Assembly (NCBI GenBank): GCA_048939245.1
Contig: JBHLPR010000009.1
Span: 1 to 63,621, forward strand
Length of the DNA: 63,621 bases
Direction: 5' to 3'
DNA from: Promethearchaeota archaeon
GTDB lineage: Archaea > Asgardarchaeota > Hermodarchaeia > Hermodarchaeales > Hermodarchaeaceae
Below, one piece after another: positions 46 to 45,985 of the stretch. Position 1 is the first letter of the stretch. Each line of letters begins with the position of its first letter. The notes below the pieces were generated by a model. The model was given only the letters and a program-made list of their open reading frames with translations. It was not told the DNA's origin and ran no database searches. The position numbers were made by a program, and so were the translations under genes.

Positions 46-336
46 ATGAATGCAGCCGTCCCTTTCCTCTTGTACTTAGGAATCGACGGATTGTTAACTT
101 TTTCCTGGACGTTGCTACTGGCGCAAGTTCAACACATTTTCATGGTCTTCACCGCTATCTTCATCCTAGCTGTAACCTACTATAGTGCCGATGACACCAA
201 AGTCCGCAAACTCATGATAGGCCTTGCGATTGGAATCGTTGCACTCATAATCTTCCTGTTCGTTATTGTTCCCATCATTCTCTTAGATCCCTTGGCGCAA
301 ATCATTCTGGAATCCTATTTGCCCCAAATGCTTTGA
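46..336 (+). CDS. Small membrane protein (possibly 5'-truncated by the window edge)
   Basis: Three hydrophobic segments; its stop codon TGA overlaps the start of repeat copy 1. Confidence 0.6.
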   Translation: MNAAVPFLLYLGIDGLLTFSWTLLLAQVQHIFMVFTAIFILAVTYYSADDTKVRKLMIGLAIGIVALIIFLFVIVPIILLDPLAQIILESYLPQML

Positions 337-394
337 GCAACCGATTTTTCCAGTCGTTATATGTCGGTTTCCTAATCTTCGAAGACATATTGCT
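335..394 (+). repeat. Polar intergenic repeat copy 1 (no terminal hairpin)
   Basis: GAGCAACCGATTTTTCC at 335, GTTAT, TCGAAGACATATTGC at 379. Confidence 0.85.
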
Positions 395-536
395 GATTGT
401 AGCTTGTAATGGCAGTTTTTTCAGAATGATGAGGAGTTTTGTGCTTGTTGGAGCGTTGCCACAAGATGAATATTCAAGAAGATTGGTTTTTTTCTAAGTG
501 ATAATCCCTTTGGATTGAGTCCTGAGTACTTTATCA

Positions 537-1427
537 TTGATTTCAAATAGGAAAACCACTCAGAGATTGTTGGAGGGCTCAGTTTTGCTTCAACCACAAA
601 TCGCGATTGTTGGTGGATCGGGCTTGTATTCTATTCTTGAGAAGCCAAAAACCCAATGGATTACAACACCATTTGGTGGATCAGCACCTATTGACTTAGG
701 TGAGATATCGGGAAAACCAGTTGCGTTCTTAAACCGGCATCAATCTCCTGACCAAGGGGCTATTGCATCCCACTCAATACCACCGCATGCTGTTAACTAC
801 CGGGCGAACCTGTTGGCGCTTCGTCAACTTGGTGTGCGCTATGTCCTAGTTACCACAGCGGTGGGGAGTCTTCGTGAAAAGTTGCCGCCAGGGCAGCTAA
901 TTATACCTCACCAACTTATTGATTTGACTCAGTCTCGAACCTCGACTTTCTACGATGGCACCACCGTGTTTGAGATTGGAGGAAAGACCGTCTCTGGGAT
1001 CGTTCATATTGATGTGACGAATCCGTTTTGCTCAACTTTAAGGCGGGTCCTTCTAGGTGCTTGTAAGGAACTGCGTTTCCAGGCTGTGGATTCAGCAACA
1101 TATGCGGCGATGGAGGGGCCTCGGTTTGAAACGGCAGCGGAAATTAAGATGCTGCGCCAGCTTGGCGTTGATATTGTGGGGATGACATTGGCGCCTGAAG
1201 CGTTTCTTGCCCGTGAACTTGGGATGTGCTATGCCGCCTGTTCGGTGGTTACGAACTACGCTGCAGGGCTAGTAAAAACTCCAATTACTCATGAAGAAAC
1301 CCTTCGCACATTTAAGAGCCGTATTGAGCAGGTACAAAATGTGCTTCGCCTCGCTATTCAGAGCCTGCCGCCAACCCAACCTGATTGTAATTGTTACGCG
1401 GTATGGGAAAGTGCCACTCAGGGTTGA
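537..1427 (+). CDS. MTAP/PNP-family nucleoside phosphorylase, probably 6-oxopurine or methylthioinosine specific
   Basis: GGSG, PPHAVNYRAN, EGPRFET and VGMT motifs; VTNYAAG (Asn) rather than the TDYD of adenine-specific MTAP. Confidence 0.9.
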   Translation: MISNRKTTQRLLEGSVLLQPQIAIVGGSGLYSILEKPKTQWITTPFGGSAPIDLGEISGKPVAFLNRHQSPDQGAIASHSIPPHAVNYRANLLALRQLGVRYVLVTTAVGSLREKLPPGQLIIPHQLIDLTQSRTSTFYDGTTVFEIGGKTVSGIVHIDVTNPFCSTLRRVLLGACKELRFQAVDSATYAAMEGPRFETAAEIKMLRQLGVDIVGMTLAPEAFLARELGMCYAACSVVTNYAAGLVKTPITHEETLRTFKSRIEQVQNVLRLAIQSLPPTQPDCNCYAVWESATQG

Positions 1428-1489
1428 ACTGAGAAGATACAAGCGTTTGTAATTGGTTGAATTATTAGGAAAACTTAATGAATTTTTCA

Positions 1490-1593
1490 GAGCAAGGTGT
1501 TTTTCGGTGTGTTATCTGCCATGAATGATGCATGTCGAAGACATAAGTGCAATTCCTAATCAATGACGTGAAAGAGGATTTGTTTCGCATCAT
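1490..1593 (+). repeat. Polar intergenic repeat copy 2 (full)
   Basis: GAGCAAG 1490, TCGAAGACATAAGTGC 1535, AATGACGTGAAA-GAGGATTTG-TTTCGCATCAT 1562-1593. Confidence 0.92.
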
Positions 1594-1703
1594 GCTAATG
1601 ATGTATTCTCGGTGTTCTTTTTTGCTAGTGTACTGTTTCCCCAAATAACAAAAGGGGGCGGGAGATATGGTGTGTGGAATTCAAATAAGGAGACCTTGAT
1701 TGC

Positions 1704-2567
1704 GTGGAAGATATTGTCCTTAAGTATTCGACAGTTGATGGCGAAAAGGTGCAAGTTCAACTTCCTCCGGAAAAAACTGATATCGGATTATATGGGCGCG
1801 AAATTGTTGAGTTGGACCTCTCATCTATCGATCGACGTACCGAAATTGAAGAGCTAGATTTGCGAAGAAACCAATTGACCAACATTGATCTTGAACCGCT
1901 TCAACACTGTCCGAACTTGAAGAATCTGCGGTTAAGTGGAAATCAATTAATCCAACTCGATCTTGGTTCACTTGAGCATTGTAATCGATTACGTAAGCTG
2001 GAACTAAGTAATAATCAGCTCGCAGAAATCGATTTGACGGCACTTCAATCCTGTACTAAGCTTCGAGAACTTCATCTCACAGCTAATCGATTTCAGAAAA
2101 TTGATCTTGCTCCCCTTCACCAGTGCATGGACCTTCAAGAAATTCGGCTTAATTGGAACGCGCTTGTAGAAATTGATTTGACACCAGTAGGGTATTGGAG
2201 TCGGCTTGAAGATCTGATTTTGGACCGAAACCAGTTACAGGAAATTGATTTGACACCATTAAAACAGTGCACAGATCTTCGAACTCTCAAATTGGGTGAA
2301 AATCAATTGACTTCCATTGATTTGGAGCCGCTTAGAAATTGTCTTAAGCTAGAAATCTTGTATTTATCTGCTAACCCTTTTGAGCAGATTGATTTGTCAC
2401 CGCTCTTTTCTTGTCCGGTTTTGGGGCTTTTTTCGCTGCATCCGGGTGTTGAGTTGGTGGCGGACGCTTCGCTCAAAGATACTAAACCCATTCCACGGGC
2501 AATTCAAGAGTTAATAGACGAGATCAACTGGCAAGAAAAGGAATCTGCCCCAAGGAATAATCAGTGA
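1704..2567 (+). CDS. Leucine-rich repeat protein (22-aa repeats)
   Basis: About 9 tandem LxxLxLxxNQLxxIDLxPLxxC units. Confidence 0.92.
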   Translation: MEDIVLKYSTVDGEKVQVQLPPEKTDIGLYGREIVELDLSSIDRRTEIEELDLRRNQLTNIDLEPLQHCPNLKNLRLSGNQLIQLDLGSLEHCNRLRKLELSNNQLAEIDLTALQSCTKLRELHLTANRFQKIDLAPLHQCMDLQEIRLNWNALVEIDLTPVGYWSRLEDLILDRNQLQEIDLTPLKQCTDLRTLKLGENQLTSIDLEPLRNCLKLEILYLSANPFEQIDLSPLFSCPVLGLFSLHPGVELVADASLKDTKPIPRAIQELIDEINWQEKESAPRNNQ

Positions 2568-2901
2568 CTTTGTGGTTTTCAAAGGATCTAATGGGACTTT
2601 GGTTATTCTTGCTCGTCTTCGTTTTCGTACTCTTCAGACCACCCGATATCGGTTCGTTTGACTCGTTCACCGGAGATTAGCACATATTCACGGTTCTTGC
2701 GAGAGCGTGGTCGACGATGCAAATCCCGCATAACCCGTCCGTCAGTTTGTTTGTCATTATTTGTTTCTTCGCTCAAATTTTATCAGCTCCTGTATTGTAT
2801 GAGGTATGAATTGAGAGCCAGTCTCGGCGTCCTATTTTGACTACACATAATCGTTCAGCATAGAGTGGGATAGCCGAGATTGGATTAGGTTGATTTGTAG
2901 T

Positions 2902-3105
2902 TTATTCCACCACAACGTTTGTGGCTTTTTGCCCGCGGTCACCGTCTTCGATTTTGAAGCTGACCTTGTCGCCTTCTTTAAGCAGGTAAGCGCCTTCGAC
3001 TTCGCTACCGTGCACGAATACGTCGGTGCCGGTTTTACGTTCGATGAAACCGTAGTTACGATCGGGATTAAACCATTTGACTGTGCCTTTTACCATAGTG
3101 TTCAC
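2902..3105 (-). CDS. csp: Cold-shock domain protein (likely start ATG at 3096)
   Basis: GTVKWFN..YGFI (RNP1) and DVFVH (RNP2); GAGGTGA SD upstream of the ATG. Confidence 0.95.
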   Translation of the reverse strand: MNTMVKGTVKWFNPDRNYGFIERKTGTDVFVHGSEVEGAYLLKEGDKVSFKIEDGDRGQKATNVVVE

Positions 3106-3260
3106 CTCGATTTGCTTGAGTTGAGATGGGGTTATCTCTCAGGGATAGGTGGCTGTGTCACGCAACCGTACTGTTCCGTAGAATGTAATTCGGGGGAATA
3201 GCTGCCTAGCATGATAAGCTAAAGTTCTTCATAAAACGAAACTAAATCCTATTTGCTAAC
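3106..3260 (-). promoter_or_regulatory. Conserved promoter and structured 5' leader of csp
   Basis: Aligns with 52783-52910 upstream of the paralog; two conserved stems on the minus strand. Confidence 0.65.
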
Positions 3261-3337
3261 AACAAGAGGGAAGCTCGAGAGTGTTTATAGGTGTTGCCCC
3301 TCCTTGCATGTAGCAGTATTTTTACTTATGATTGAGG

Positions 3338-3432
3338 CTTCAAGTGGTTTTAGGGTACGTTATATGTTTACATGAATGACTATCGAAGACATACATGCCT
3401 GGAATCTTTCAAATGCTGTGAAAGATAATTTT
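3338..3432 (+). repeat. Polar intergenic repeat copy 3
   Basis: TCGAAGACATACATGC at 3383, AATGCTGTGAAAGATAATTT at 3412; right arm degenerate. Confidence 0.85.
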
Positions 3433-3541
3433 CAAGCTATTCAATGAATTTTCTTCATATCGAAACTCTTGCTTTGTTTTTAAGGAGAGAACACGCATAG
3501 GAGTGTTTCTCCTTTAACAACGACGCTGGAGTTGAAAATAA

Positions 3542-3931
3542 ATGGCTGAAGAATATGGGATGATAACGCGAATTACGTTCATCATCCATATAATCATTGG
3601 ACTCATTTTTGGAATTAGTTTCTTGGTCATCCCTGACATCATGTTACCGTTGTTTGGGATGGCTTTTGTTGATCCCACTGTGCGAATGTTTGGTGCTATC
3701 ATCATCGGTTTCACCGTTACATCAATCTTAGGCCTAATGACACGCGAGGTCGTCCGTGTGAAGATCATCATTCAAGCGGAGCTCATCTGGCTGATCTTGG
3801 GTATTATCGCTGGTGCTGTGCACTTAGTCATTCCTCCCTTATTGTCTCTGACCTTTGCTGGCGCTGCCATTGGTTCTCTAGTGATACTATTCATTCTGTT
3901 CCTCCTATCTTACTTCATGGAAATCAGATGA
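3542..3931 (+). CDS. Four-TM hypothetical membrane protein
   Basis: Four hydrophobic helices; GGAG SD. Confidence 0.8.
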   Translation: MAEEYGMITRITFIIHIIIGLIFGISFLVIPDIMLPLFGMAFVDPTVRMFGAIIIGFTVTSILGLMTREVVRVKIIIQAELIWLILGIIAGAVHLVIPPLLSLTFAGAAIGSLVILFILFLLSYFMEIR

Positions 3932-3961
3932 TAATAGCTCGACCTCAATATCATTGAAACT

Positions 3962-4003
3962 AGTCTGTCGGGATCGGAATCCCCACAGACTTCTTCTCTT
4001 TTT
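3962..4003 (+). terminator. Hairpin plus T-rich tract
   Basis: AGTCTGT.GGGAT-CGGA-ATCCC.ACAGACT followed by TCTTCTCTTTTT. Confidence 0.6.
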
Positions 4004-4073
4004 AGCTAACATAGACATCTCAACGTGTTGAGAAAGCAAAGATTGTTACGTTTTTTTGATGATTTTCAGCTCC

Positions 4074-4175
4074 GAGCAAGCAGTTGTTCCGACGATTATG
4101 TGTCAGTTTTTTGTTTCGAAGACGTTTATGCAATTCTAAGTATATAATGTGAGAGATGATTTGTTTCTCGTCGTT
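4074..4175 (+). repeat. Polar intergenic repeat copy 4 (full)
   Basis: GAGCAAG 4074, TCGAAGAC 4116, ATGTGAGA-GATGATTTG-TTTCTCGTCGTT. Confidence 0.9.
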
Positions 4176-4304
4176 CACTTAGTTGATATCATTGGATTTT
4201 TCCTCGGCTCTTATCAGGTATTTGCAAACGTATAGAAAATTAGTATACTATTTCAGATAGTTATAGAAGAATTGATTCATGGTTTGTGAATTGAGGAGGT
4301 AAAT

Positions 4305-4847
4305 GTGTTAATGATGCCAATTGGACCATTGATGATTGAACACAGGTTGATTGAACGGATGATTGGGTTAATGAGAGAGGAATTGGAACGGATTCGAGAT
4401 ACGGCGCGTGTGAATTCACGATTCATTGATACGGCAGTAGATTTTCTGAGGACCTATGCGGACAGGACTCATCATGGGAAGGAGGAGGATATTCTGTTTC
4501 GTGAGCTGTCAAAGAAATCGTTGACAGATAAGCACCAGAAAATTATGGGCGAACTGGTCGAGGAGCATGGAATTGCCCGGAAGACGGTGGGCCGTTTAAT
4601 TGAAGCGAATACGAAATACATGCAAGGCCATAACACCTCAGTCGATGAGATACTTCGCCTTCTTGAGAAACTCGTTAATTTTTACCCTGAACATATCCGG
4701 AAGGAGGATAAGGATTTCTTCATTCCGTGTATGAAATATTTTTCTCAACAGGAACAGCAGGACATGCTAGAGGAATTCTGGGCATTTGATCGGAAGATGA
4801 TTCATGAAAAGTACAAGAAAGTTGTTGATACTCTTACACTAAAATGA
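4305..4847 (+). CDS. Hemerythrin-domain protein
   Basis: EH..., HHGKEEDILF, EH and HIRKED motifs. Confidence 0.9.
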   Translation: MLMMPIGPLMIEHRLIERMIGLMREELERIRDTARVNSRFIDTAVDFLRTYADRTHHGKEEDILFRELSKKSLTDKHQKIMGELVEEHGIARKTVGRLIEANTKYMQGHNTSVDEILRLLEKLVNFYPEHIRKEDKDFFIPCMKYFSQQEQQDMLEEFWAFDRKMIHEKYKKVVDTLTLK

Positions 4848-4913
4848 AGAGATAAAAATCTAAGATTTCAAGATGTTCCCGTCCGCTCGTCAATCTGGTG
4901 GCTTTTAGGGTTC

Positions 4914-5019
4914 GAGCAAGCCGTTTTCCATGCTGTTATTTGCGCTTCTATTGAATTTCGAAGACATACATGCAGTTTCTTTCGAATGAAGTGAAAGATG
5001 ATTTGCTTCACATCATTCG
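4914..5019 (+). repeat. Polar intergenic repeat copy 5 (full; between convergent genes)
   Basis: GAGCAAGCCGTTTTCC 4914, GTTAT 4935, TCGAAGACATACATGC 4958, GAATGAAGTGAAA-GATGATTTG-CTTCACATCATTC 4984-5018. Confidence 0.93.
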
Positions 5020-5066
5020 CAAACCGATTTATGCACAAAAAACTGATTTCTCTTAAGAAGAAAGAA

Positions 5067-5948
5067 TTATCTAGCTACCACTCCGCGGACGAAGAACCCT
5101 AAGGGAATAAAACAGACCAACCCCATGATGAAGATCAAGATAATATCGACTAGAACGAACGGTGCACCCGTGAAAATCGGCTGGAGCAGGAGAAACATGA
5201 TCAAGCCGATGAATAACATACTCGCCACAAAGAGTAATCCCAATCCGCTGACATAGCCGAGAGAACTTCGCCGAAGCATTAAGCCTCCGCCAGCAATAAA
5301 GAGGATTGAGATAACTATGTCGGCAATCGACACACCAATTTCAGAAATAGGATGCAACATCGGATTTATGATTGTCCCGGCAATCACGCCAATTGCTCTG
5401 AAGATAAACAAGACGCCGAACCCAACCAGAACCAAACCGGCGATTCGTACTGGCACCCCTTTGGACAGCTGCTCGTGAATGGTTTTCTGATCAATGCTTT
5501 TCAAGAGCGTGAAAGTGCAGTATGTGCTCAGCAGAACGAGTACCACATATGATACAGTGAACACACTGAAAGGTATCCCGAAAATATAGGCGATGTAATT
5601 GTAGAGAATGTATAGCAGCGCGCCTGGCCAGAAAAGTAGACCCACCAGCTTCTCACTTTTCGTGAGCCACAGTGCAACAAGCAAGACTGGCACTCCTAGG
5701 AAGAGATTGACCACATCATTGGCAACAAACATTTGGAGAAGTTCTTCTGTTGGGTAGAGGGTGGAAGGCCAAAGCAAACCACCGAGGGACACAGCAGCCA
5801 TGAGGATGACGCTGACGAGGGTGAGCACAAAAGTAAATGTTAGATCACGCTTCACTGGAAGGTTACGAAGGTGAAGTGCGAGCGCCACCCAATTTTTTGT
5901 TTCTGGGACTTGAACCTCCATTGGAGTCGAATCAGCCATTTCGTTCAC
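5067..5948 (-). CDS. Multi-pass membrane protein
   Basis: About 8 TM helices; divergent from the TetR gene. Confidence 0.8.
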   Translation of the reverse strand: MNEMADSTPMEVQVPETKNWVALALHLRNLPVKRDLTFTFVLTLVSVILMAAVSLGGLLWPSTLYPTEELLQMFVANDVVNLFLGVPVLLVALWLTKSEKLVGLLFWPGALLYILYNYIAYIFGIPFSVFTVSYVVLVLLSTYCTFTLLKSIDQKTIHEQLSKGVPVRIAGLVLVGFGVLFIFRAIGVIAGTIINPMLHPISEIGVSIADIVISILFIAGGGLMLRRSSLGYVSGLGLLFVASMLFIGLIMFLLLQPIFTGAPFVLVDIILIFIMGLVCFIPLGFFVRGVVAR

Positions 5949-5965
5949 CTCATTTATTCCATATA

Positions 5966-6037
5966 AAATAAATGAACATTCACTTATTTATAAATCTTCC
6001 TCCCCCGAAACAAATCTTAATAAATGAATGCTTATTC
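5966..6037. promoter_or_regulatory. Putative TetR operators in the divergent promoter
   Basis: AAATAAATGAA-CA-TTCACTTATTT (5966-5989) and a related ATAAATGAAT-GCTT-ATTCA just upstream of tetR. Confidence 0.55.
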
Positions 6038-6617
6038 ACCTCTCAATATGAGAACTCGGGACCAGGCGAAATATGACGCGATTGTAAAGGCATCTATCCA
6101 GCTGGTCAATACACTCGGATTTGATGGCATCTCGATTTCCAAGATAGCGAAGAAAGCCAAAGTGTCACCAGCGACGATCTATATCTATTTTGAGAACAAA
6201 GCGGACCTATTTACCAAGCTCTATATCGATATTCGAAAGAAAACGCATCGAGGTCTCATTCAGGGAGTGCGGGATGAGATGACGATTGAACAAACATTCA
6301 AGACTATCTGGTATAACTCCTTCTTCTATCATCTCAAGCATCCTGAATATATTGTTTTTCGGGAACAGTTTGAACAGACATCGATGATGAAGAACGTCAG
6401 GGAGAATGAATTCGAGTCCTATAAATATGTCAGAAATCTCCTCCAGCGTGGCATTGACGAGAAGACCATTAAAAACCACCCATTACCCATTCTTACAGCT
6501 TTTGCCTTTATCCCTGTAATCACCCTCATCAAATATCATCGAAGTGGTATAATCAAGATGGATGAAGCCCAGATTCAGCAAGCATCTGAAATCGCATGGA
6601 ATGCCATTAGTAGCTAA
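6024..6617 (+). CDS. TetR/AcrR family regulator (likely start 6048)
   Basis: HTH IAKKAKVSPATIYIYFENK. Confidence 0.92.
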   Translation: MNAYSPLNMRTRDQAKYDAIVKASIQLVNTLGFDGISISKIAKKAKVSPATIYIYFENKADLFTKLYIDIRKKTHRGLIQGVRDEMTIEQTFKTIWYNSFFYHLKHPEYIVFREQFEQTSMMKNVRENEFESYKYVRNLLQRGIDEKTIKNHPLPILTAFAFIPVITLIKYHRSGIIKMDEAQIQQASEIAWNAISS

Positions 6618-6695
6618 CATATTGCACAAATCAACATAACCAATTAACGGGGGGAAAACCCTGGTTCAATCTGCAACAAATGCCTTTCAAAAATT

Positions 6696-6757
6696 GAGTT
6701 GCTTGTCTTTTCTCGAATTATATGCTCATAAGATTCTTTTTGAAGACTTAAATTCCA
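6696..6757 (+). repeat. Polar intergenic repeat copy 6 (degenerate)
   Basis: GAG at 6696 and TTGAAGAC at 6740, keeping the 44-bp spacing. Confidence 0.5.
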
Positions 6758-6898
6758 TTTTCATTAGGCTTTTGGCTACTTAGAGAAATGCATTTCATTG
6801 TAGACTGATTTGCTGTGAGGTAACATCTAGTTAGCACCTAAATATTGTGTTAGCCGATTAAGAACGATTTAAATATCAACAGCAAGCATAGGAAGCCT

Positions 6899-8680
6899 TT
6901 GGGAAGGTTTCGCATCTTTTTACCAAGAGGCGAACTATTTCCTATAGGAGGTAACATGGATTTGAAAAGATCCTACATTATAGCAATTGTGTTAGTAGTT
7001 ATCATTGTTGGAGGTGCAGCTGGCGTCTACTTCTTCATGAGGCCGCCACCAATAACTAACCTAATCGTCATGGGAACTACTGACTCAATAGAGACGGTCC
7101 TCGATCCCGCTAGAGCTTACGACTACTTTGCCTGGTCGATAATTGGTTCTCTCAGTTCAGGGTTAGTCGATATTGAACCCGGTTCTCAAGCAGAACCAGG
7201 CGATATCATACCTGGATTGGCAACGAGTTGGACAACGAGTGGCGCTGGATCCATATATGACTTCACTCTGAGAGAAGGCGTAACCTTCGCAGATGGATTA
7301 CCATTTAACGCATCAATCGTCAAATACACGTTCGATAGATCCTGCAACCTTACAGGTGAAGGGCTCTATGAACCTGAAGGATTTCAGCTTGGCATCGGCT
7401 TGGCTGACATTATTGAGAATGTGACAATATTGGGCGAATATTCTGTAAGGTTTTACTTGTATTTCCCCTGGGCTCCATTCTTACAAACAATGGCAGCACA
7501 AGGTTGTTTCATGGTACATCCAACGTATGCACCAATGAGTGAATTGGCTAATTACACTGAAGGTAATGCCCGTGCAAGCCATGCATGTGGTCTTGGTCCA
7601 TATCTTCTCCAAAGTTGGAGTCGTGTCGGCGGGTCAGATGAAGAGATGGTATTTGTCAAGAACCCCGACTACTGGGATGCTGCCAGTGGGCTGCCAAAGA
7701 CTGACACATTCATCATTAAATTCTATGAAAGCGACACCGCCCTTGCAACAGCAATGTCAGCTGGTGAAGTTGACGTAGCATACAGACAGCTCAGTGCAGC
7801 TCAAATCAATGCTTTTCGGGCGAATCCAGCAGTGCGAGTTTGGGAGGTAGCAGGTCCATTTATTCAGTATCTGTGCTTCCAACAGAGAACGTATCCTTAC
7901 AACGAAACTCTGATTCGGCAAGGAATAGCTGCCGCGTTGAACCGGACAAACTTGGTTGAGACAGTGTTCATTGGCACTGCGCAGCCTTTGTATAGTATTA
8001 TCCCTGAAGGGATGGCTTACCATAAGCCAACCTTTGAGGTACATGGCAGCGCAAACTACACTTACACTCAAACTGTTTTTGATCTCTTTGGCTACAATGC
8101 AACCAACAAACTGGTAGTCGAGTTATACTACGAGAGTTCAGGTCACTACCCACAAAGTGCAGAACAAGCAGCCTTTTTCAAGATAAATCTAGAGGCAAGC
8201 GGTGTAATGACTGTTAACCTAAATGCCCTCGAATGGGCAAGTTACAGAACTGCAAGAAGTGCTGGTTCAATGCCTGTCTACATATATGGATGGTACCCAG
8301 ATTACATTGATCCTGATAACTATGCTTTCTTGCCATTTGCTACTTGGCTCAACATGGGATACAATAGTACATATCCAGCAGGTGGAGTGGCGCAATACAA
8401 CCTGTGGGTTTGGGGTCGTAGTAATACCACTGATACAGGAAGACGGACCTCATATCACGCTCTACAAGATCTCCAAGCTCAAGAGTGCTCAGTGATTCCA
8501 TTGTATCAGGGTGGTGCATATGCGGTGAGCAAACTCACCATCCATGGCATTATCTTAGATATCACAATTAACTTCCGACACTGGCTCCTCTATTGGGGAG
8601 AAGAAGCGACCACTGGCCCGTTTTTAGTATTTCAAACCAACGTAATAGTGTCATCAGGCAACAAACAATTCAAGATTTAG
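6899..8680 (+). CDS. dppA: Peptide/nickel ABC transporter substrate-binding protein, family 5 (likely start 6956)
   Basis: N-terminal anchor, LDPA, YDFTLREGVTFADG, GWYPDYIDP; GGAGG before ATG 6956. Confidence 0.9.
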   Translation: MGRFRIFLPRGELFPIGGNMDLKRSYIIAIVLVVIIVGGAAGVYFFMRPPPITNLIVMGTTDSIETVLDPARAYDYFAWSIIGSLSSGLVDIEPGSQAEPGDIIPGLATSWTTSGAGSIYDFTLREGVTFADGLPFNASIVKYTFDRSCNLTGEGLYEPEGFQLGIGLADIIENVTILGEYSVRFYLYFPWAPFLQTMAAQGCFMVHPTYAPMSELANYTEGNARASHACGLGPYLLQSWSRVGGSDEEMVFVKNPDYWDAASGLPKTDTFIIKFYESDTALATAMSAGEVDVAYRQLSAAQINAFRANPAVRVWEVAGPFIQYLCFQQRTYPYNETLIRQGIAAALNRTNLVETVFIGTAQPLYSIIPEGMAYHKPTFEVHGSANYTYTQTVFDLFGYNATNKLVVELYYESSGHYPQSAEQAAFFKINLEASGVMTVNLNALEWASYRTARSAGSMPVYIYGWYPDYIDPDNYAFLPFATWLNMGYNSTYPAGGVAQYNLWVWGRSNTTDTGRRTSYHALQDLQAQECSVIPLYQGGAYAVSKLTIHGIILDITINFRHWLLYWGEEATTGPFLVFQTNVIVSSGNKQFKI

Positions 8681-8760
8681 GTACCAACCGTAAGCCTAAA
8701 CTATGACTTGATTGGAACTGATGACACCCACATTTTCTTTGGTAAAAAGGTGAGAATCGG

Positions 8761-9771: not shown

Positions 9772-9783
9772 GAGCTGGTAAAG

Positions 9784-37647: not shown

Positions 37648-37676
37648 ATAGAAAATCAAATTAGTTTTGTGTTTTT

Positions 37677-37711
37677 AAAAAAAGAAAGTAATGCCAAGAT
37701 GGCATTACTTT
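37677..37711 (-). terminator. Hairpin plus U-tract terminator
   Basis: AAAGTAATGCCA-AGA-TGGCATTACTTT with an adjacent A-run on the + strand. Confidence 0.75.
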
Positions 37712-37727
37712 TAGAAGAAGGAAGTTT

Positions 37728-38033: not shown

Positions 38034-38153
38034 GTCGTTTTTACCTCCAATTTGTGCTTGAGAACCTACAGATTATTACCCATAGACTCCCCTAATTGGC
38101 TGCTAGCAGAGTAGATTCTATAAAAGGATATTTACTTTGTATTCGTTAAGTGT

Positions 38154-38250
38154 TGGTGCATTTATTTTCGAGGCGTTATTCGCTACTGTAAGGGATGTCG
38201 AAGCCACATATGTGATTCATTATAAATGACGGAAAAAATGGTTTGCTATT
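38154..38250 (+). repeat. Polar intergenic repeat copy 20
   Basis: GTTATTCGC, TCGAAGCCACATATGTG 38198, AATGACGGAAA. Confidence 0.75.
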
Positions 38251-39716
38251 ACGCTGTTTTCGACTTCTTTGCTAGATTTTTTAGTAAGTTGGTAGGATTA
38301 TCTGTTTTAGCAAGGAGTTGGTTTCAAGCAATGAGATATTCGATATCAATTCCCGTGTTGATAATGGTGAGTTTATCTGTTTCTTTGATGATTCCGTTAC
38401 CTACGTTATATATGGCTTCAGGCATAGGCTGTGAGCTGTCGGCAACGGGAGTAACGAAGGCAGAAGCGGTTATAGCGGCAGATTCGGTGTCGTCCGTATG
38501 GAACTGGACGTTTGGTGGGGCGAATATGGACTGGGGATGTTCGGTAATTGAGGTAAGTACAGGAGGCTTTGCCGCTGTGGGGTATACGCAGAGTTCTGGT
38601 GCGGGCGATTCAGATGTGTGGTTAATTCTTACTGATGAATCCGGCAATCCACAATCCAGTCATACCTTTGGTGGTGTCGATCGCGATATTGGTTGGGGCA
38701 TCATAGAAGTTAGCAGTGGTGGGTTTCTCATTGTAGGGGAAACAGAAAGCTTTGGTGCCGGTGATTTTGATGCCTGGTTAATTCGGGTTGATACGAACGG
38801 AAATCACCTGTGGAATCAGACCTATGGCGGACTGTATGATGAATGGGGCTGGACCGTCGTCGAATTGAGTACTGGCGGCTTTGTTTTTTCAGGGCGTACG
38901 GCTAGCCTTGGTGCTGGATCGTTTGATGTCTGGTTAGTACGCACCGATAGCTATGGAAATCACCTCTGGAACCACACCTTCGGTGGGACTAACATTGATG
39001 TAGGCAGAGGTATGGTAGAACTAAGTACCGGCGGCTTTGCCATTATTGGACAAACATCAAGCTTTGGTGCCGGCTTTTATGATTTTTATTTGATTCGAAC
39101 CGATGCTGATGGCAATTTGGTGTGGAGTCGCACCTATGGTGGTACAGGTCTTGATGAAGCAGCATCCATTGCTGAGGTGAGCACCGGTGGCTTTGTGTTG
39201 ACTGGAGATACCTTTAGTTATGGTGTAGGGTCAAGTGATGTATGGTTAATCCGTACCGATGCTAATGGAAATAGTCTTTGGAACCAGACCTTTGGTGGTG
39301 CTGATGCAGATGGAGGGATGGCTGTTATCGAAATGAGCAGCGGTGGCTACCTCATCACTGGTGAAACCGAAAGCCAGGGGGCGGGAGGTGCAGATTTGTG
39401 GTTGATCCGCACGAATGCTGATGGAATTGCTACTTGGAATCAAGCTTACGGTGGTGCTGATGATGAGGAAGGTTGGGCGGTTATTGAAACGAGTTCTGGC
39501 GATTTGGTGGTCTTGGGAGAAACGAGTAGTTTCGGTGCGGGGCTAGCTGATGCATGGTTGATTCAGGTCACCGAGGAATTGGCGTTGCCACCGTTTCCCT
39601 TAGAGATCCTCTTCCTTATCGTAGGTGTAATTATCATCGTTGTGATTATCGTCGTGGTTATCATCGTAATCAGACGCCGCCGCAGCAAACCTCGTAAACG
39701 AAGGCGCAAATCTTAG
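38226..39716 (+). CDS. Membrane-anchored repeat protein, predicted beta-propeller (likely start 38331)
   Basis: Seven ~52-aa repeats WxxT(F/Y)GG...ExSxGGF...G.T.S.GAG..D.WL(I/V)RTD; C-terminal TM plus Arg tail. Confidence 0.85.
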   Translation: MTEKMVCYYAVFDFFARFFSKLVGLSVLARSWFQAMRYSISIPVLIMVSLSVSLMIPLPTLYMASGIGCELSATGVTKAEAVIAADSVSSVWNWTFGGANMDWGCSVIEVSTGGFAAVGYTQSSGAGDSDVWLILTDESGNPQSSHTFGGVDRDIGWGIIEVSSGGFLIVGETESFGAGDFDAWLIRVDTNGNHLWNQTYGGLYDEWGWTVVELSTGGFVFSGRTASLGAGSFDVWLVRTDSYGNHLWNHTFGGTNIDVGRGMVELSTGGFAIIGQTSSFGAGFYDFYLIRTDADGNLVWSRTYGGTGLDEAASIAEVSTGGFVLTGDTFSYGVGSSDVWLIRTDANGNSLWNQTFGGADADGGMAVIEMSSGGYLITGETESQGAGGADLWLIRTNADGIATWNQAYGGADDEEGWAVIETSSGDLVVLGETSSFGAGLADAWLIQVTEELALPPFPLEILFLIVGVIIIVVIIVVVIIVIRRRRSKPRKRRRKS

Positions 39717-39737
39717 AGGACCAGTTCAGCCTAAATC

Positions 39738-39797
39738 GGGCAAGGAAAGTCTGAGTGTTAAGAGTCAGTCCCCTAGAATTCGAATGTGCAATTCCTC
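39738..39797 (+). repeat. Polar repeat, degenerate copy
   Basis: GGGCAAGG, GTGTTAA, TCGAA-TGTGCAATTCCT (cf. copy 2 TCGAAGACATAAGTGCAATTCCT). Confidence 0.5.
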
Positions 39798-39915
39798 ACT
39801 TATATCTTGAGTCAAGATTTTCCTTTGACCTTAGAGCTTGAGAGTCACGTGTTGTTAGGATTCGCTTAATCTGGAATAACTTAGCGTACTAAGGAGTCCA
39901 AGGCGCTAAGGCGCG

Positions 39916-40296
39916 CTATGTTTTCACTTCTCGAGGTATCATCCTGCTTGCAATGAGTACGATCAACCCTGGTATCAACCCTCCGAACACTAAACCGAGG
40001 GCGCCTGTGACGAGGAGGCCAGTTCTATGGGCGCTGGGATCACGTCGCCAGTGGAACCAGAGAAATATGTAGATGATTCCAAGGATTCCATGAACCATAT
40101 ACAGACCGATTAGAAAGTGTATGAAGATGGTGAGGAAGGCTAGTACCTCAGTTGTTGGAGGTGTTGGTAGTACAGCTATTGTTATTTCTAACATTAGTGG
40201 AAAAAAGAGGACACCGAGGAAGCCGTTTATAACGAAAAAGATTTGGAGAATTATTCCAGCAAGGACCAACGTTTTAACCGTATCTTCTTCCGACAT
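39916..40296 (-). CDS. Small membrane protein
   Basis: Three to four TM segments; GGAGG SD. Confidence 0.7.
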   Translation of the reverse strand: MSEEDTVKTLVLAGIILQIFFVINGFLGVLFFPLMLEITIAVLPTPPTTEVLAFLTIFIHFLIGLYMVHGILGIIYIFLWFHWRRDPSAHRTGLLVTGALGLVFGGLIPGLIVLIASRMIPREVKT

Positions 40297-40668
40297 TGGT
40301 TTTATTCCCTCCCTTGGCTATTATTTCCTACCGAATTTTGTAATATAAATTTTCTCAAATTGGATTAAACTTTGTGTAGAGCGAATTAGCCCATATGTTA
40401 CAATGTTGTATCATTGCTAGAATTAGCGTTATTGGAACTTCGAGAGGAGGAGGCAGATATGAGCTCACTCCATGTTTCTAAGAAGACTAATTACGTGTGT
40501 TTATGGAGGAAAATTCCCCCCTTTTATGTAGAGGAGACCGTTTTTCAGACAGCTCTGCATCATTTTGAATAGTGCTTGAGTATTTCCTTAATTTTACCTA
40601 TGGAAATCTGTTAACGATTCACTAGATAGAAATACAAATGCCATAGGACTACAGATTATTGGTATGAA

Positions 40669-41697
40669 TTGATTGTAGGAGGGTACTTGATGGTTATTGA
40701 AAAGACTATTTCGACAGTGGATTTACATACTGCGGGTGAACCGGTGCGATTTATTCTAGAGGGGTTAGGGTCGATTCCGGGAAAAACTATGGTGGAAAAA
40801 CAGAGATTCTTTGCTCGGGAATTAGATAGTATACGTACCTTGTTGATGCATGAACCCCGTGGTCACCGAGCTATGTGTGGTGCGCTTTTGACACCTCCGG
40901 TGAGCCGGGATGCTCATTTCGGTTTACTTTTTTTCGATGGTGGAGGATATTTGAATATGTGTGGACATGGGACGATTGGAGTGGCTACGGCGGTATTAGA
41001 ACAGGGAATGTTTGCTAAGAAGGAACCTTATACGCATTTATCTTTTGATACTCCTGCAGGTCTTATTCATGTAAAAATACATATTGAAATGGGGCAAATT
41101 CGAAGTGTAACGTTGCGGAATGTCGCCTCCTTTCTCTTTACCAAAGATGTTGTGCTTGAACTTCCTGGAATCGGGGAGGTTACAGTCGATATTGCCTTTG
41201 GTGGGAACTTCTTCGCATTCGTTGAGGCTTCGGCGTTACAGCTTGAAGTGGAGAAAGGAAATCTCGATGAATTAATTGCTACAGGGCTCATGATAAGAGA
41301 TGCCATCAATGCGAAAATCAAGGTTCAGCATCCTATTGCTAAGCATATTACGAGTGTCGGATTGACTGGGATTTATGGAAAACCTAAGAATCCACAGGCC
41401 CAGGCTCGAAACGTGGTAATTTTTGGTAATGGGCAGGTTGACCGGTCACCTTGTGGGACAGGAACCAGTGCCAGACTCGCCGCTATGTATGCACGAGGAC
41501 AAATCGGTCTAGATGAACCATTCATTTGCGAAAGCATCATCGAGACCCTATTTGAAGGTAAAATTGTCGCAGTTACCAAAGTTGGGCAAATTGAAGCCAT
41601 TATCCCTGAGATTAAAGGATCAGCGTATGTGACAGGATTCAATCAGTTTATTGTCGATTCTGAAGACCCCTTAAAATATGGGTTTCAGCTATTGTAA
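40669..41697 (+). CDS. Proline racemase/hydroxyproline epimerase family enzyme
   Basis: HTAGEP, EPRGH, MCGHG and DRSPCGTG (both catalytic Cys present). Confidence 0.93.
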   Translation: MIVGGYLMVIEKTISTVDLHTAGEPVRFILEGLGSIPGKTMVEKQRFFARELDSIRTLLMHEPRGHRAMCGALLTPPVSRDAHFGLLFFDGGGYLNMCGHGTIGVATAVLEQGMFAKKEPYTHLSFDTPAGLIHVKIHIEMGQIRSVTLRNVASFLFTKDVVLELPGIGEVTVDIAFGGNFFAFVEASALQLEVEKGNLDELIATGLMIRDAINAKIKVQHPIAKHITSVGLTGIYGKPKNPQAQARNVVIFGNGQVDRSPCGTGTSARLAAMYARGQIGLDEPFICESIIETLFEGKIVAVTKVGQIEAIIPEIKGSAYVTGFNQFIVDSEDPLKYGFQLL

Positions 41698-41724
41698 TCC
41701 TGAGTTGATAAAAAAACTTTGCTA

Positions 41725-41785
41725 GCTCTTCCACCCGGTGATGGATTATTTGCACTTCGATATGAATTTCAAAGACATAACCGCA
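41725..41785 (+). repeat. Polar repeat copy (no hairpin)
   Basis: ATTATTTGCACTTCGATATGAATTTCAAAGACATAACCGC, close to copy 5. Confidence 0.75.
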
Positions 41786-41910
41786 CGTTTGTTTTTAGGA
41801 TCTTGTAAACCATTTTGTCAGCTGAAATTTGTCTTCTAAAGGAATTAGCAGACTTGGTTGAAAATTCTCTATAAATAACAGAAAGACTTCGTCAAATAGA
41901 CTGAAATCAG

Positions 41911-43128
41911 TCACGATTGTTGAGAGCTTTTTGCCGTTTCAATGAGGAGTAATGAAATCAGTAGTGCGAGGATGTCGAGGGCGACGAGGAGTACCATGGC
42001 CCAGAAGAAGGAGAGGAATAGCGAACTTGCAAGGTCCATTGCGAGGATAAGTACAATACCGCCAGCCTGTCCGAAAATCATTAAAATTCCAGCCGAGGTG
42101 CCTTCGGGAATGGGTTGTGTCATTTCGGCTCCCGTTTGCAGGCCTAAGGGTAATGCGGGCATGAGGAAGAAGCCTAGTAAGAAGGAGGAAGCGAGTAGTA
42201 CGGTGTAATCGGGATGATAGGCGAGGAGAAAGGTGAAGGGGGCGGCTAGCAGGAGCGAGAGGATGATGAAGGGTTTGCGGCGTTGGTATTTATCAGATAA
42301 TGTGGGAATAATCACAGCCCCAATGATTCCGCCAAGGATCATGATGGCGCCGACTATTCCAGCTTGAGTGATATCAACAACACGTCCCGCAAGTATTTGT
42401 TCAATCCATGTGGCTACACCGTTAAAGATACCCATACCCACGAAGAATAAGACTTCAAGGATAATGAATTGTTTAATTCCGATGATGCGTCGCAGACCAG
42501 TGGTCATTTTTTCTTCTTCAGGTTCGTCGGATTCGGGAGGAGAAGGAGGACGTTCCTTGGCGATAATTAGGAATAGAATGGCAGCGATGACGGCAACAAC
42601 CGCGTAGCTTAACATTGTGTAGAAGAATCCGATGCCTACAACGGCAAAGGGGGTGACTAAGAGGCCGAGCATGATTCCAAGAAAGATAGCCATGGTTCCT
42701 AACCCAGTGGCAAGGCCACGTTCATCAGCCGGAAACCAGCGTCGAGCAATTTTGGTGGGGCTGTTAAAGACAAAGGGTTGTCCAATAGCGATGCCGGCTG
42801 AAAAAATTAGCAAAAGGAGATAGTTGGGTGCAAATACACGACACACGGCAAAGACTGCCGTGATGATTGCGCCGACACCAGCGGCGTACCGAAAGCCCTT
42901 ACTGTCAATGAGATACGCTGAAGGAATTGAGACCGGTATGTAGACGACCATGAAAATCAGTGAAAGTAGGGCTATATCGAGTTCTGTCACAGCATAGAGG
43001 CTGGCAACTAGCGATGAAATTGGGGCAAAGGTGATCCATAGGATTTGGGTCACTGCCGCGATGAACATAAACACTAACAAAACAATCCAGCGATATCCAT
43101 AAACAGGAGCTTCCATTGATTTCGTCAC
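41911..43128 (-). CDS. MFS transporter (FLVCR/SLC49-like)
   Basis: 12 TM; Y.YRW, WITFAPI, WFPADERGLATG. Confidence 0.88.
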   Translation of the reverse strand: MTKSMEAPVYGYRWIVLLVFMFIAAVTQILWITFAPISSLVASLYAVTELDIALLSLIFMVVYIPVSIPSAYLIDSKGFRYAAGVGAIITAVFAVCRVFAPNYLLLLIFSAGIAIGQPFVFNSPTKIARRWFPADERGLATGLGTMAIFLGIMLGLLVTPFAVVGIGFFYTMLSYAVVAVIAAILFLIIAKERPPSPPESDEPEEEKMTTGLRRIIGIKQFIILEVLFFVGMGIFNGVATWIEQILAGRVVDITQAGIVGAIMILGGIIGAVIIPTLSDKYQRRKPFIILSLLLAAPFTFLLAYHPDYTVLLASSFLLGFFLMPALPLGLQTGAEMTQPIPEGTSAGILMIFGQAGGIVLILAMDLASSLFLSFFWAMVLLVALDILALLISLLLIETAKSSQQS

Positions 43129-43151
43129 AATTGTGACCTCCTAGGAACCTG

Positions 43152-43174
43152 GTCTACAATTAGAATTTGTAGAC
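43152..43174. promoter_or_regulatory. Inverted repeat upstream of the MFS gene
   Basis: GTCTACAA-TTAGAAT-TTGTAGAC. Confidence 0.45.
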
Positions 43175-43485
43175 TACTAACCACAAATGGGTTATGAGTA
43201 TCTAATATAACTAGCTGTCTTCGTTTGAAGCTCAATAAATGGAATAGAAGAAGCCAATTCCTGTGGCTTGAAGATTATAGAGAGAGTGGGTCTTGGGAGT
43301 TATCCGATTTTCATTTGGGTGCGAAAACATAGCATTTCCATTTGATGAGTGGTTGTTGATTTCTTTGCGCGTGGGAGAAACTTAATAAATGGTTTCTATA
43401 GAACAAGTATATTATATAATTTATATAGAGTCGTTGGTTTACTAGTACCTGTCAATACCACCACAAAATCGGAGACCCGAACCTC

Positions 43486-44505
43486 TTGCAATTGGTTGCA
43501 CTACTCCTACCCGTCTTTGTCTTACTAATTCTGGCGAGTATTGTAGCCTTTGCTATTGGAGCAAACGATAGCACCATGGCCAATTTGGTCGGTGCTAAAG
43601 TGCTTTCACTGAGGGGCTCCGTTATTTTGGGAGCCAGCCTATTGATTATTGGAGCCGTGGTGTTAGGTCAGGGCGTAAGTACGACAATTGGTTCAGATAT
43701 GGTTACCCAGCCACTGAGCGTTGATCTTGTGTTTGTTATTTCATTAGCAATCATTGTATGGATGTTGTTCAGTGCCTACCTGGGTTACCCGATTTCAGCT
43801 ACTCATTCAGTTGTTGGGGGCATTATAGGTATTGGATTGTTAGAGGAGTTTGTTTGGGGTATACCTATTATTCGGTGGGACACCATCTCAATTATTCTCA
43901 TTGGCTGGATTCTGAGCCCACTGCTTAGTTTAATAGTTGCTTTTCTCCTTCAACGTTACATTCGTAGAACGCTTCTTTCGAAAACCAAAGGATTAACGGA
44001 GATTCAGCGAAGGGAGCAGATTTTTGGTTGGTTGTTACTGGTGATGGTTATTATTATCTGCCTAAGTCGTGGAGGGAATGATGTGGCTAAGGCGATAGGG
44101 TTGTTGACAATCTTTTTTGCTGAACCCATCGAACTTTCATTATTGTTGTTGATGGGGGGAGTAGGCATGGGACTTGGATTATTAGTTTTGGGACGACGAG
44201 TGGTTCGGACGGTTGGAATAGAGTTGACGGAATTACGTCCCAGTGCGAGTTTTTCATCGGCAACATCAGGGGCCATTGTGTTGCTTGTTGGTACGATTTG
44301 GGGGATTCCACTTGCTGCAACGCATATCCTTATTACATCGGTAATTGGAGTGGGCATGGCAAATCGAGCATCTACGAATAAGACGGTGTTACGAAAACTG
44401 ATCTTAACCTCTCTTCTTACCGTTCCCGTCTCAGCAGTCCTTGCGATCTGTATTTGGTGGATTTATCAGATAACACTTCCCTTCATATTCCTACCCGCCC
44501 TGTGA
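43486..44505 (+). CDS. PiT family inorganic phosphate transporter
   Basis: GAND and GGNDVA signatures; PISATH and PLAATH. Confidence 0.9.
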   Translation: MQLVALLLPVFVLLILASIVAFAIGANDSTMANLVGAKVLSLRGSVILGASLLIIGAVVLGQGVSTTIGSDMVTQPLSVDLVFVISLAIIVWMLFSAYLGYPISATHSVVGGIIGIGLLEEFVWGIPIIRWDTISIILIGWILSPLLSLIVAFLLQRYIRRTLLSKTKGLTEIQRREQIFGWLLLVMVIIICLSRGGNDVAKAIGLLTIFFAEPIELSLLLLMGGVGMGLGLLVLGRRVVRTVGIELTELRPSASFSSATSGAIVLLVGTIWGIPLAATHILITSVIGVGMANRASTNKTVLRKLILTSLLTVPVSAVLAICIWWIYQITLPFIFLPAL

Positions 44506-44600
44506 ATTATCATTGACTACCATTAAGCTAAGCCCCCGAAAAAAAAGAACGGAAAACCAAAAAATGGTTTTTTAGTTGTTAAATTTTCTTCCGATTATTG

Positions 44601-44616
44601 TCGCAGACGTATGTGA
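44601..44616 (+). repeat. Possible polar repeat core (weak)
   Basis: TCGCAGACGTATGTG resembles the copy 8 core TCGAAGACGTATATG. Confidence 0.4.
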
Positions 44617-44700
44617 CTAAGGAGATTATTCTGAGCTCGAGAAGCTATGTAAGATTCTTTGATTCTGTCGACTTATTTTGATTCTGAACCGTTATTCTTG

Positions 44701-45309
44701 TTAGGGCAGTAAAGCCCCGATGAGTACCAATACACCTGCGATGATAAATGCGGTGGCGGCAACGTAGGCGATTGTCGTTGTGCCGAGGTATTGTCGGGCG
44801 CGGTCACCAATGATTACACCAATACCATTCACGATTGCTAAAGCAAGAAATGCTGCGATAAGAACAAGGAGCAGTTGTCCTGTTGTAGCGGCAATCAAGA
44901 TTACAACCAGCTGGGTTTTATCACCTAGCTCCGCAATGAAAAGCAGGATAAATGCGCGTACCCATACACGGTTTCCTGGCGCCGCGGTTGACTCTTCGTC
45001 TTCTTGAGTACGTCTTATTCTGTAAACAGTAATAATGCCCAAAATTATGAAAATGATGCCTGCGATTAGTTGGATCAGTGAGAGAGGAATCAAGAATGCA
45101 ATAAGGGAACCAGCAAGAACGCCAATTATGGTTACAGTAAATAATCCACCCAATACCCCGAGGTACACTTGAACAGGTTTTCCAGTTTCAGCTACGAGGG
45201 CGAAAGTGACAATTTGGGTTTTATCTGCTAGTTCAGCAAGTAAAACTAATGCGAATACTGTGAGAAAGAGTGAAACTAGCAAGATGGACATAGATTTACA
45301 TTGTGCCAT
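44701..45309 (-). CDS. TMEM165/GDT1 (UPF0016) Ca/Mn transporter
   Basis: Two motifs AELADKTQ and AELGDKTQ. Confidence 0.92.
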   Translation of the reverse strand: MAQCKSMSILLVSLFLTVFALVLLAELADKTQIVTFALVAETGKPVQVYLGVLGGLFTVTIIGVLAGSLIAFLIPLSLIQLIAGIIFIILGIITVYRIRRTQEDEESTAAPGNRVWVRAFILLFIAELGDKTQLVVILIAATTGQLLLVLIAAFLALAIVNGIGVIIGDRARQYLGTTTIAYVAATAFIIAGVLVLIGALLP

Positions 45310-45373
45310 GAACAGTGTTTAATTGGATTTCCATCAGCTAGAAAAAAATGACGCTAGCTCGTCAAGATGACGT

Positions 45374-45859
45374 TTATAGTTCACCGATGTCTTCGTTCCA
45401 GAGCTGGGGATGTTCGTTGATGAATGCTTGCAAGAGTTCTTTGCATACAGGTAGGTCTAAATCGATGACTTTTACGCCCTGTGATTCCATGAATGTGCGG
45501 GCACCGGCAAAGGTTTGAGATTCGCCGGCAATGACCTTAGCAATTTTGAATTGCACTACGGCTCCGGCACACAGGTAACAGGGCATCAGGGTTGAATATA
45601 ATGTGGTACCTGCATAGTTGCCGATGCGTCCCGCGTTTTGGAGGCAATCAATTTCTGCATGCAGGATTGGGTTATTTTGTTGTACGCGTTGATTATGCCC
45701 TTGTCCAACGATTGTTCCATCCTTGACCAGCACGGAGCCAATCGGAATACCACCTTCTTGGCGGCTTTTCTTTGCTTGTTTAAGAGCGGCTTGCATGAAA
45801 GGGTCCATTGGTCGAATCACCATTGCATTTAATGAACGTACAATTTGAGATCTTTGCAT
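45374..45859 (-). CDS. Zinc-dependent cytosine/nucleoside deaminase
   Basis: GGIPIG, HAE, PCYLC, WNEDIG (yeast Fcy1-like). Confidence 0.9.
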   Translation of the reverse strand: MQRSQIVRSLNAMVIRPMDPFMQAALKQAKKSRQEGGIPIGSVLVKDGTIVGQGHNQRVQQNNPILHAEIDCLQNAGRIGNYAGTTLYSTLMPCYLCAGAVVQFKIAKVIAGESQTFAGARTFMESQGVKVIDLDLPVCKELLQAFINEHPQLWNEDIGEL

Positions 45860-45919
45860 TATATGCTCTTCTCTTTGGGTTCGAAGAGATGCTTATTCAA
45901 GCAGAAGGAACCCTAGGGG

Positions 45920-45985
45920 CAGTTTCAAAATTAGTAATAAGCGTTTTGTCGTTCTATTTGATATCGAATACATAAGTGCGATCTT
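45920..45985 (+). repeat. Polar repeat, last recognisable copy
   Basis: TCGAATACATAAGTGC at 45964 (one mismatch to the copy 2 core). Confidence 0.6.

Follow-up and report, generated by a model that had tools for sequence, protein, structure and literature searches.

What kind of system places copies of one short repeat, always on the same strand, between the genes of a 46-kb region of an archaeal chromosome? The question is raised by contig JBHLPR010000009.1 (positions 1 to 63,621, forward strand; assembly GCA_048939245.1) from a Promethearchaeota archaeon of the family Hermodarchaeaceae. The whole of this stretch, 63,621 nucleotides, was analyzed and is referred to as the window; the repeat is termed the junction site, and the units of one or more genes between its copies are termed cassettes. 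With a probability of about 0.6, we interpret the 46 kb as a chromosomal array of mobile gene cassettes, an integron-like platform for site-specific recombination that is served by a putative enzyme.

The junction sites form a clustered and polar array

The exact core sequence of the site, TCGAAGAC, occurs 17 times in the window, as compared with 2.05 expected occurrences and a maximum of 6 in 100 shuffles. Thirteen of the 17 are intergenic site copies on the + strand, at positions from 379 to 37601, and the remaining four (2944 and 28007 on the - strand; 55917 and 63352 on the + strand) are isolated chance matches in coding sequence. Alignment of the regions surrounding the core revealed a longer element, and a profile hidden Markov model built from 21 site copies was run with nhmmer on the window and on the whole assembly, a metagenome-assembled genome (MAG) of 2.52 Mb in 122 contigs that is 88% complete. 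The profile identified 23 places in the window, between 332 and 46034, and all 23 are on the + strand, as the original prediction, made from the sequence of the window, had claimed. Every copy start listed in that prediction was recovered except the one near 39780, which is below threshold and is at most a degenerate copy (TCGAATGTGCAATTC), and the two "hairpin-only" fragments listed at 33422 and 36314 proved to be true right-arm remnants that lie exactly at cassette boundaries. The claim that the copies are intergenic holds nearly throughout, the exceptions being the first copy, whose edge touches the stop codon at 334–336, and the last, whose right arm overlaps the 3' end of the gene at 46014–46613.

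The rest of the genome contains five further copies, only on three short contigs (C121, C50, and C106); three of the five are on C106, which begins within a site copy. Because the copies in the window are all on one strand and those elsewhere are confined to these contigs, the array is clustered and polar, and profile scans of the whole genome and of its relatives bear out the predicted clustering and co-orientation as opposed to scattering. In 21 contigs of relatives, the copies on any one contig all share a strand, apart from one partial match, and the same is true of 22 metagenome contigs. The uniformity in the contigs of relatives, together with that of the 23 copies in the window, shows that the common strand is not a matter of chance; among about 250 copies overall, essentially none is inverted.

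The 114 units between sites have a median length of 1.5 kb, reaching 6 kb in this window; 54% contain a single gene, and their GC content is that of the genome. Their genes lie on the strand of the repeat in 128 cases and on the opposite strand in 125. Since the strand of the site is thus independent of gene direction, the sites are not simple promoters or terminators of the adjacent genes, in agreement with what had been predicted. The cassettes are self-contained, with their own promoters and with genes on either strand, and encode mostly transporters, metal and ion homeostasis proteins, and accessory enzymes; a proline racemase is also encoded among those of the window.

Structure of the junction site

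The anatomy of the site was derived from 128 copies from 11 species anchored on the core. The site is ~110 bp in length and consists of a left arm of ~50 bp and a right arm of ~60 bp that meet at the core. The left arm has two conserved blocks, AGCAAGCCGTTTTTC (about -44 to -29) and GTTATnTGC (-23 to -15). The core, TCGAAGAC within TTTCGAAGACATA, is asymmetric and 93–99% conserved in these copies. The right arm comprises the block ATAnnTGC (TGC at +13 to +15), a T-rich stretch, and an inverted repeat, ATGATGTGAAA-N9-TTTCACATCAT (+27 to +57), with arms of 11 bp and a spacer of 9 bp. The blocks of the arms are in constant register in over 200 non-coding copies from 13 species; overall, the copies are only 60–80% alike, and the longest run that they share is ~13 bp.

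The inverted repeat of the right arm folds strongly in ~38% of copies but shows no covariation: pairing is no more common than independent columns predict, and compensatory changes are not in excess. What is conserved in this inverted repeat is therefore its sequence and not a signal in a folded strand, and the repeat looks like a palindrome to which a protein might bind in duplex DNA. RNAalifold gave no consensus structure (0 pairs) for 21 copies, the left half folds no better than shuffles (minimum free energy -9.4 versus -9.6), and no terminal inverted repeats were found (8.48/12 versus 8.39/12 in shuffles). A search for an 11-N-11 dyad with spacers of 2–10 bp found none at the core, the best mean complementarity (4.7/11) being in the right arm with a 9-bp spacer; the site is therefore not dif-like. 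Rfam covariance models, with which the original prediction had proposed to look for known non-coding RNA families, gave no match at gathering thresholds in the whole window, and a tRNA scan was also empty.

Cassettes are shuffled, and their sites are chimeric

Relatives of the host contain many of the same cassettes in another order, and the blocks of homology stop at the sites; the original prediction had looked to related genomes for precisely such breakpoints at the repeat. Cassettes 1–6 of the window are among those that relatives share in changed order. When 128 sites from 11 species were compared, 50 pairs had only the left flank in common and 36 only the right flank, and none genuinely shared both. 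The single pair that seemed to share both flanks is an overlap artifact, and no adjacency is conserved between species.

The two types of pair locate the point at which common ancestry changes within the site. In pairs that share the left flank, identity is ~0.75 through position -1 and has dropped to background by +8; in pairs that share the right flank, it is at background through -1 and rises past the core. By change-point mapping, left linkage ends at -7 to +11 in 15 of 30 pairs and right linkage starts at +19 to +38 in 13 of 27 pairs. Because linkage to the left flank and linkage to the right flank separate in mid-site, each site is a chimera of halves from different cassettes, and the comparisons place the exchange at the core or within about 35 bp to its right. 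The copy at 1535, for example, has a left half in common with contig G011_C39 and a right half in common with G003_C83, G006_C9, and G008_C66, and the left half of the copy at 18475 is co-inherited with the cassette for NikR and a P-type ATPase. At 20.6–22.4 kb of G008:C66, from another species, two genes 36 bp apart are inside one cassette with no site between them, whereas their counterparts in the window are separate cassettes (4147–4843 and 23333–24418); junction sites can thus disappear or arise between genes.

Cassettes that this genome has in common with four congeners have 82–88% nucleotide identity, and up to 94% over 2.9 kb. In contrast, a syntenic core locus compared with the same four genomes has 67–70% identity, and the array's own flank has 73% identity to its nearest relative. 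The higher identity of the cassettes indicates that they have been exchanged between species and not merely rearranged. No near-identical strain was found among metagenome contigs.

Distribution and chromosomal location

The class to which the host belongs has one family with two genera. A sequence-only covariance model detected the site in 13 of the 14 species of the host genus, with 1 to 32 copies in each, and in none of the four genomes of the sister genus. A BLAST search of 22 other genomes from the phylum did not find it, and viral contigs gave no matches. Positions 50929–63621 of the window lie outside the array and are a conserved chromosomal right flank (GNAT, csp, TPR, GNAT, DinB, and others) that is syntenic with contig G003_C67 from another species at ~73% identity; for this reason, the array is considered to be anchored at a fixed chromosomal locus. 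The locus of the sister genus that is syntenic with this flank has no array of any repeat. A conserved gene was looked for at the left ends of arrays and none was found, and when a position weight matrix of the core was used to look beyond the arrays for a "primary" site, all of its matches were chance ones in coding sequence.

Proposed mechanism and candidate recombinase

The clustering of the copies, the breakpoints at the repeat, the lack of attC ends (described below), and the lack of an Rfam match support the view of the original prediction that these are cassette-recombination sites of an integron-like but non-attC type. Our inference is that exchange is carried out by a site-specific recombinase, at the core or immediately to its right, through a circular intermediate. 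Recombination between two direct copies would excise the intervening gene or genes as a circle with one hybrid site, and the circle would re-enter at any copy of the site, either in the same genome or, after DNA transfer, in that of another species. Within such a mechanism, every insertion would have the same orientation because the core is asymmetric. The enzyme would act in trans, and the only detectable candidate, a weak one, is XerA. The asymmetric zone of exchange could also be accounted for by a mixed model, in which first-strand exchange at the core would be followed by rightward branch migration through the conserved right arm and then by resolution by a host enzyme. More tentatively, and with clearly less confidence than we have in the array as a site-specific platform, we suggest that the platform may be mechanistically unrelated to integrons: a long, unfolded, asymmetric duplex site would be cut at or beside TCGAAGAC, and promoter-bearing cassettes would be moved between species, by an unrecognized family of recombinases or by XerA with accessory factors.

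The recombinase had been predicted to lie outside the window, and neither the window nor 779 kb of contigs with arrays was found to contain a recombinase gene. Neither a Y1 transposase nor a serine recombinase was found in this 88%-complete MAG, which has six TnpB-like genes. XerA, encoded at G000:C82:20500-21441, is its sole tyrosine recombinase and scores 274 bits against NF040815 (cut-off 220). IntI was not found; the best match to TIGR02249 is XerA itself, with 164 bits against a cut-off of 265 and with the model region 178–236 missing. Of the 14 genomes of the genus, 12 encode a full-length XerA, whereas the four genomes of the sister genus (80–83% complete) have no full-length orthologue and gave one weak partial match (E 5e-19). 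It is because of this co-distribution with the site across the genus, as compared with the sister genus, that XerA is a candidate enzyme. Its distribution across the Asgard families of the phylum is patchy, many Asgard lineages seem to be without a Xer recombinase, and xerA is unlinked to any array. A search for the genome's own dif site, based on inverted-repeat structure and on likeness to the bacterial consensus, yielded no convincing candidate.

Several observations weigh against a site-specific platform. Recombinase scans of the MAG gave no identified enzyme for the site, and the core is without the flanking dyad-symmetric binding arms of a classical tyrosine or serine recombinase site. 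The zone of exchange is broad, extending from the core to about +35, as would also be the case if the best-conserved stretch underwent homologous crossover or branch migration; within this zone, the variable positions +8 to +17 are linked to neither flank. No circular contigs were found, so no circular cassette was seen. Finally, all of the genomes are incomplete MAGs, which makes array ends and copy numbers uncertain.

Alternative explanations

Among the alternatives, the one that survives best, although we consider it unlikely, is that homologous or homology-facilitated recombination swaps the flanking genes after DNA transfer and that the repeat is conserved as an insulator, a terminator, or a protein-binding site. 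The zone of exchange matches the part of the repeat in which conservation is highest and is wider than a single phosphodiester bond, and this explanation accommodates both a core without dyad symmetry and the failure to find a dedicated recombinase. It is less easily reconciled with the limited likeness of the copies and the shortness of their common runs, or with the left boundary of exchange: the left arm, too, has conserved blocks, yet this boundary falls sharply at the core. It leaves unexplained the presence of a site at nearly every cassette joint and the near-absence of inverted copies among about 250; no alternative function suits a site that keeps one strand regardless of the direction of the neighboring genes, and the arms hold their register across species.

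A sub-case of the site-specific platform is that the chromosome-dimer resolvase XerA has been hijacked to drive the array of modules, as in integrative mobile elements exploiting Xer (IMEX) and in the pdif modules of Acinetobacter. We regard this as quite improbable, even though XerA is the only tyrosine recombinase in the MAG, exceeds the NF040815 cut-off, and is without a full-length orthologue in the same four sister-genus genomes that are without the repeat, because the core has no 11-N-11 dyad, the best candidate being the poor one in the right arm. The spacer of the inverted repeat in that arm is 9 bp, exchange maps to the left of this spacer, and the xerA gene is unlinked to the arrays.

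It is very improbable that the site is a miniature inverted-repeat transposable element, a repetitive extragenic palindromic (REP)-like repeat, a small RNA gene, a promoter, or a terminator that is locally abundant. The element is indeed short, intergenic, and degenerate, some copies have a hairpin, and T-runs on the + strand could terminate transcription, but terminal inverted repeats are no better than in shuffles, the copies are not scattered over the genome, the two halves are inherited separately with different neighbors, and there is neither an Rfam match nor a Y1/RAYT gene.

An ordinary integron, or an integrase-less cluster of attC sites (CALIN), with divergent attC sites can be dismissed almost entirely: the layout is array-like, and integrons and CALINs have been reported in about 8% of Asgard MAGs, including CALINs of two attC sites in Hermodarchaeia (PMC9668308), but the ends RYYYAAC and GTTRRRY at a distance of 50–150 bp were found in 1 of 123 sites per strand (~3 expected by chance), the one match falling outside the repeat, the site has no consensus fold, a left half like shuffles, and a hairpin without covariation, exchange is in mid-site and not at a 3' GTT, with the right arm largely inherited with the downstream cassette, genes are divided between the strands, and no IntI was found. 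The original prediction had likewise noted that the signature ends of attC and the co-orientation of genes are not present.

Features of the array and neighboring genes

The site copies and cassettes of the window are collected in Table 1.

Table 1. Junction sites and cassettes in the window, with the basis of each assignment
Feature	Position	Strand	Basis and comments
Junction site, copy 1, core 379	332..427	+	nhmmer; stop codon of open reading frame 1-336 inside left arm
Junction site, core 1535	1488..1606	+	nhmmer
Junction site, core 3383	3341..3459	+	nhmmer
Junction site, core 4116	4070..4186	+	nhmmer; right arm co-inherited with hemerythrin cassette
Junction site, core 4958, top-scoring copy	4910..5024	+	nhmmer
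Weak or partial junction site, core variant TTGAAGAC at 6740	6694..6767	+	nhmmer, E 3e-4
Junction site, core 13203	13168..13274	+	nhmmer
Junction site, core 13813	13769..13883	+	nhmmer
Junction site, core variant TCAAAGAC at 15819	15773..15889	+	nhmmer
Junction site without right-arm inverted repeat, core 18475	18427..18510	+	nhmmer
Junction site without right-arm inverted repeat, core 19563	19518..19633	+	nhmmer
Junction site, core 22587	22544..22658	+	nhmmer
Junction site, right arm truncated, core variant TCGAAGTC at 23290	23254..23350	+	nhmmer
Junction site, core 24408	24370..24475	+	nhmmer
Junction site, degenerate core TCTAAAAC at 30383	30336..30454	+	nhmmer, E 2.5e-9
Junction site, core 31391	31344..31460	+	nhmmer
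Right-arm fragment ATGATTTGTTTCACAT, 3' part of inverted repeat	33422..33437	+	exact start of cassette common to G008_C66
Right-arm-only fragment (inverted repeat) at cassette boundary	36310..36352	+	nhmmer, E 0.03
Junction site, core 37601	37551..37654	+	nhmmer
Junction site, core variant TCGAAGCC at 38198	38159..38248	+	nhmmer
Junction site, core variant TCAAAGAC at 41769	41740..41838	+	nhmmer
Weak junction site, core variant TCGCAGAC at 44601	44564..44660	+	nhmmer, E 1e-3
Partial left-arm copy	45853..45887	+	nhmmer, E 0.2
Last detectable junction site, core variant TCGAATAC at 45964	45920..46034	+	nhmmer
Cassettes 1-6	428..13167		Pfam: phosphorylase; LRR protein and cold-shock gene; unknown 129 aa; hemerythrin; membrane protein and TetR; five-gene Opp/Nik-type ABC transporter
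Cassettes 7-13	13275..24369		Pfam: small gene-poor unit; methyltransferase and Fer4 protein; NikR and P-type ATPase; luciferase-like oxidoreductase; P-type cation ATPase; zinc-ribbon protein; second luciferase-like oxidoreductase
Cassettes 14-21	24476..45919		Pfam: ABC/wHTH module, CBS, and FTR1; DNA alkylation repair; phosphatase, radical-SAM module, and PALP enzyme; small paralogous unit; repeat-rich surface protein and others; MFS and PHO4; GDT1 and cytidine deaminase

Two mini-cassettes of ~600 bp, at 13203–13813 and 37601–38198, are paralogous (~75% identical), and both are bounded by junction sites. The second holds an open reading frame of 101 residues (37728–38033, - strand), whereas the first is without an intact one. 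The gene at 38226–39716 encodes a membrane-anchored protein of 496 residues with six tandem repeats of 52 residues (156 nt; WL.R.D..GN..W..T.GG) and no Pfam match; it occurs on 8 contigs, and no other cassette gene is so widespread in the genus. A 38-nt motif occurs at 19584–19621 and 24489–24526, just upstream of the P-type ATPase cassette and the ABC module cassette; the two occurrences are 79% identical and may be a common operator of the two transporter cassettes.

Genes for cold-shock-domain (Csp) proteins are at about 2920–3125, 52142–52348, and 52579–52782, all on the - strand. The first is inside a cassette, and the other two form a tandem pair in the conserved flank, at a place where the nearest relative has a single gene. 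An apparent insertion of a cassette gene in the flank (52.4–52.9 kb) was rejected; it is a tandem duplication of the cold-shock gene and not a cassette event. Open reading frames of 103–106 residues on the + strand over the Csp genes (2890–3201 and 52519–52839) are probably spurious antisense frames. On the - strand at 48230–50734, a single protein of 670 residues fuses ferredoxin, NuoB-like (20 kDa), and NuoD-like (49 kDa) domains and adjoins the gene for a 30-kDa subunit; this is an unusually fused group-4 hydrogenase or complex I-like module.

Relation to known systems and significance

Integrons are defined by IntI and by folded attC sites, and, to our knowledge, no other platform for collecting and reshuffling single-gene cassettes is well understood. 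The present array resembles sedentary chromosomal integrons and CALINs, including those of archaea, in being a one-directional array of small accessory-gene cassettes at a chromosomal locus with a lineage-specific junction site, in having cassettes that are common to related species and reshuffled among them, and in that many arrays are without an adjacent integrase. It differs in a site with neither the ends nor the fold of attC and in the failure to find IntI. In integrons the whole attC travels with the upstream gene, whereas here exchange is in mid-site and each half moves with its own cassette; moreover, the genes here are on either strand with their own promoters, and the cassettes are often multigenic. 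Integrons and CALINs based on attC have been reported to be enriched in Asgard MAGs (Ghaly et al. 2022, Sci Adv; PMC9668308), and for Hermodarchaeia the table of that study has only clusters of two attC sites, which do not correspond to the present arrays of 7–23 sites. Full-text literature searches found no paper describing this cassette system. The idea that aloposons have a cargo divided into partitions does not agree with their published description (PMC8813620).

The pdif modules of Acinetobacter plasmids and IMEX such as the CTX phage are also accessory modules bounded by short recombination sites and are moved by a housekeeping recombinase encoded elsewhere; here, XerA is the only tyrosine recombinase found. 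However, pdif and dif are 28-bp sites with an 11-6-11 dyad, whereas the present site is ~110 bp and has no such dyad, pdif sites alternate in orientation whereas the present copies are all direct, and XerA is no more than a candidate enzyme for the present site. As in loxP, FRT, and complex att and res sites, the invariant, asymmetric 8-bp core would fix polarity, and the long conserved arms could bind accessory factors as do those of complex att and res sites. Unlike loxP and FRT, the core has no abutting inverted recombinase-binding elements, and exchange seems to reach 20–35 bp rightward.

The array, which is ordered and polar, reaches the same outcome as integrons with a different site and without IntI. 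The exchange of cassettes between species is about 15–20 identity points "younger" than the core genome, and the predominance of transporters and of metal and ion homeostasis genes among the cassettes points to niche adaptation. If the enzyme is found, the array would represent a novel system of site-specific recombination that might serve as a tool, and would provide a concrete mechanism for the heavy flux of accessory genes in Asgard archaea.

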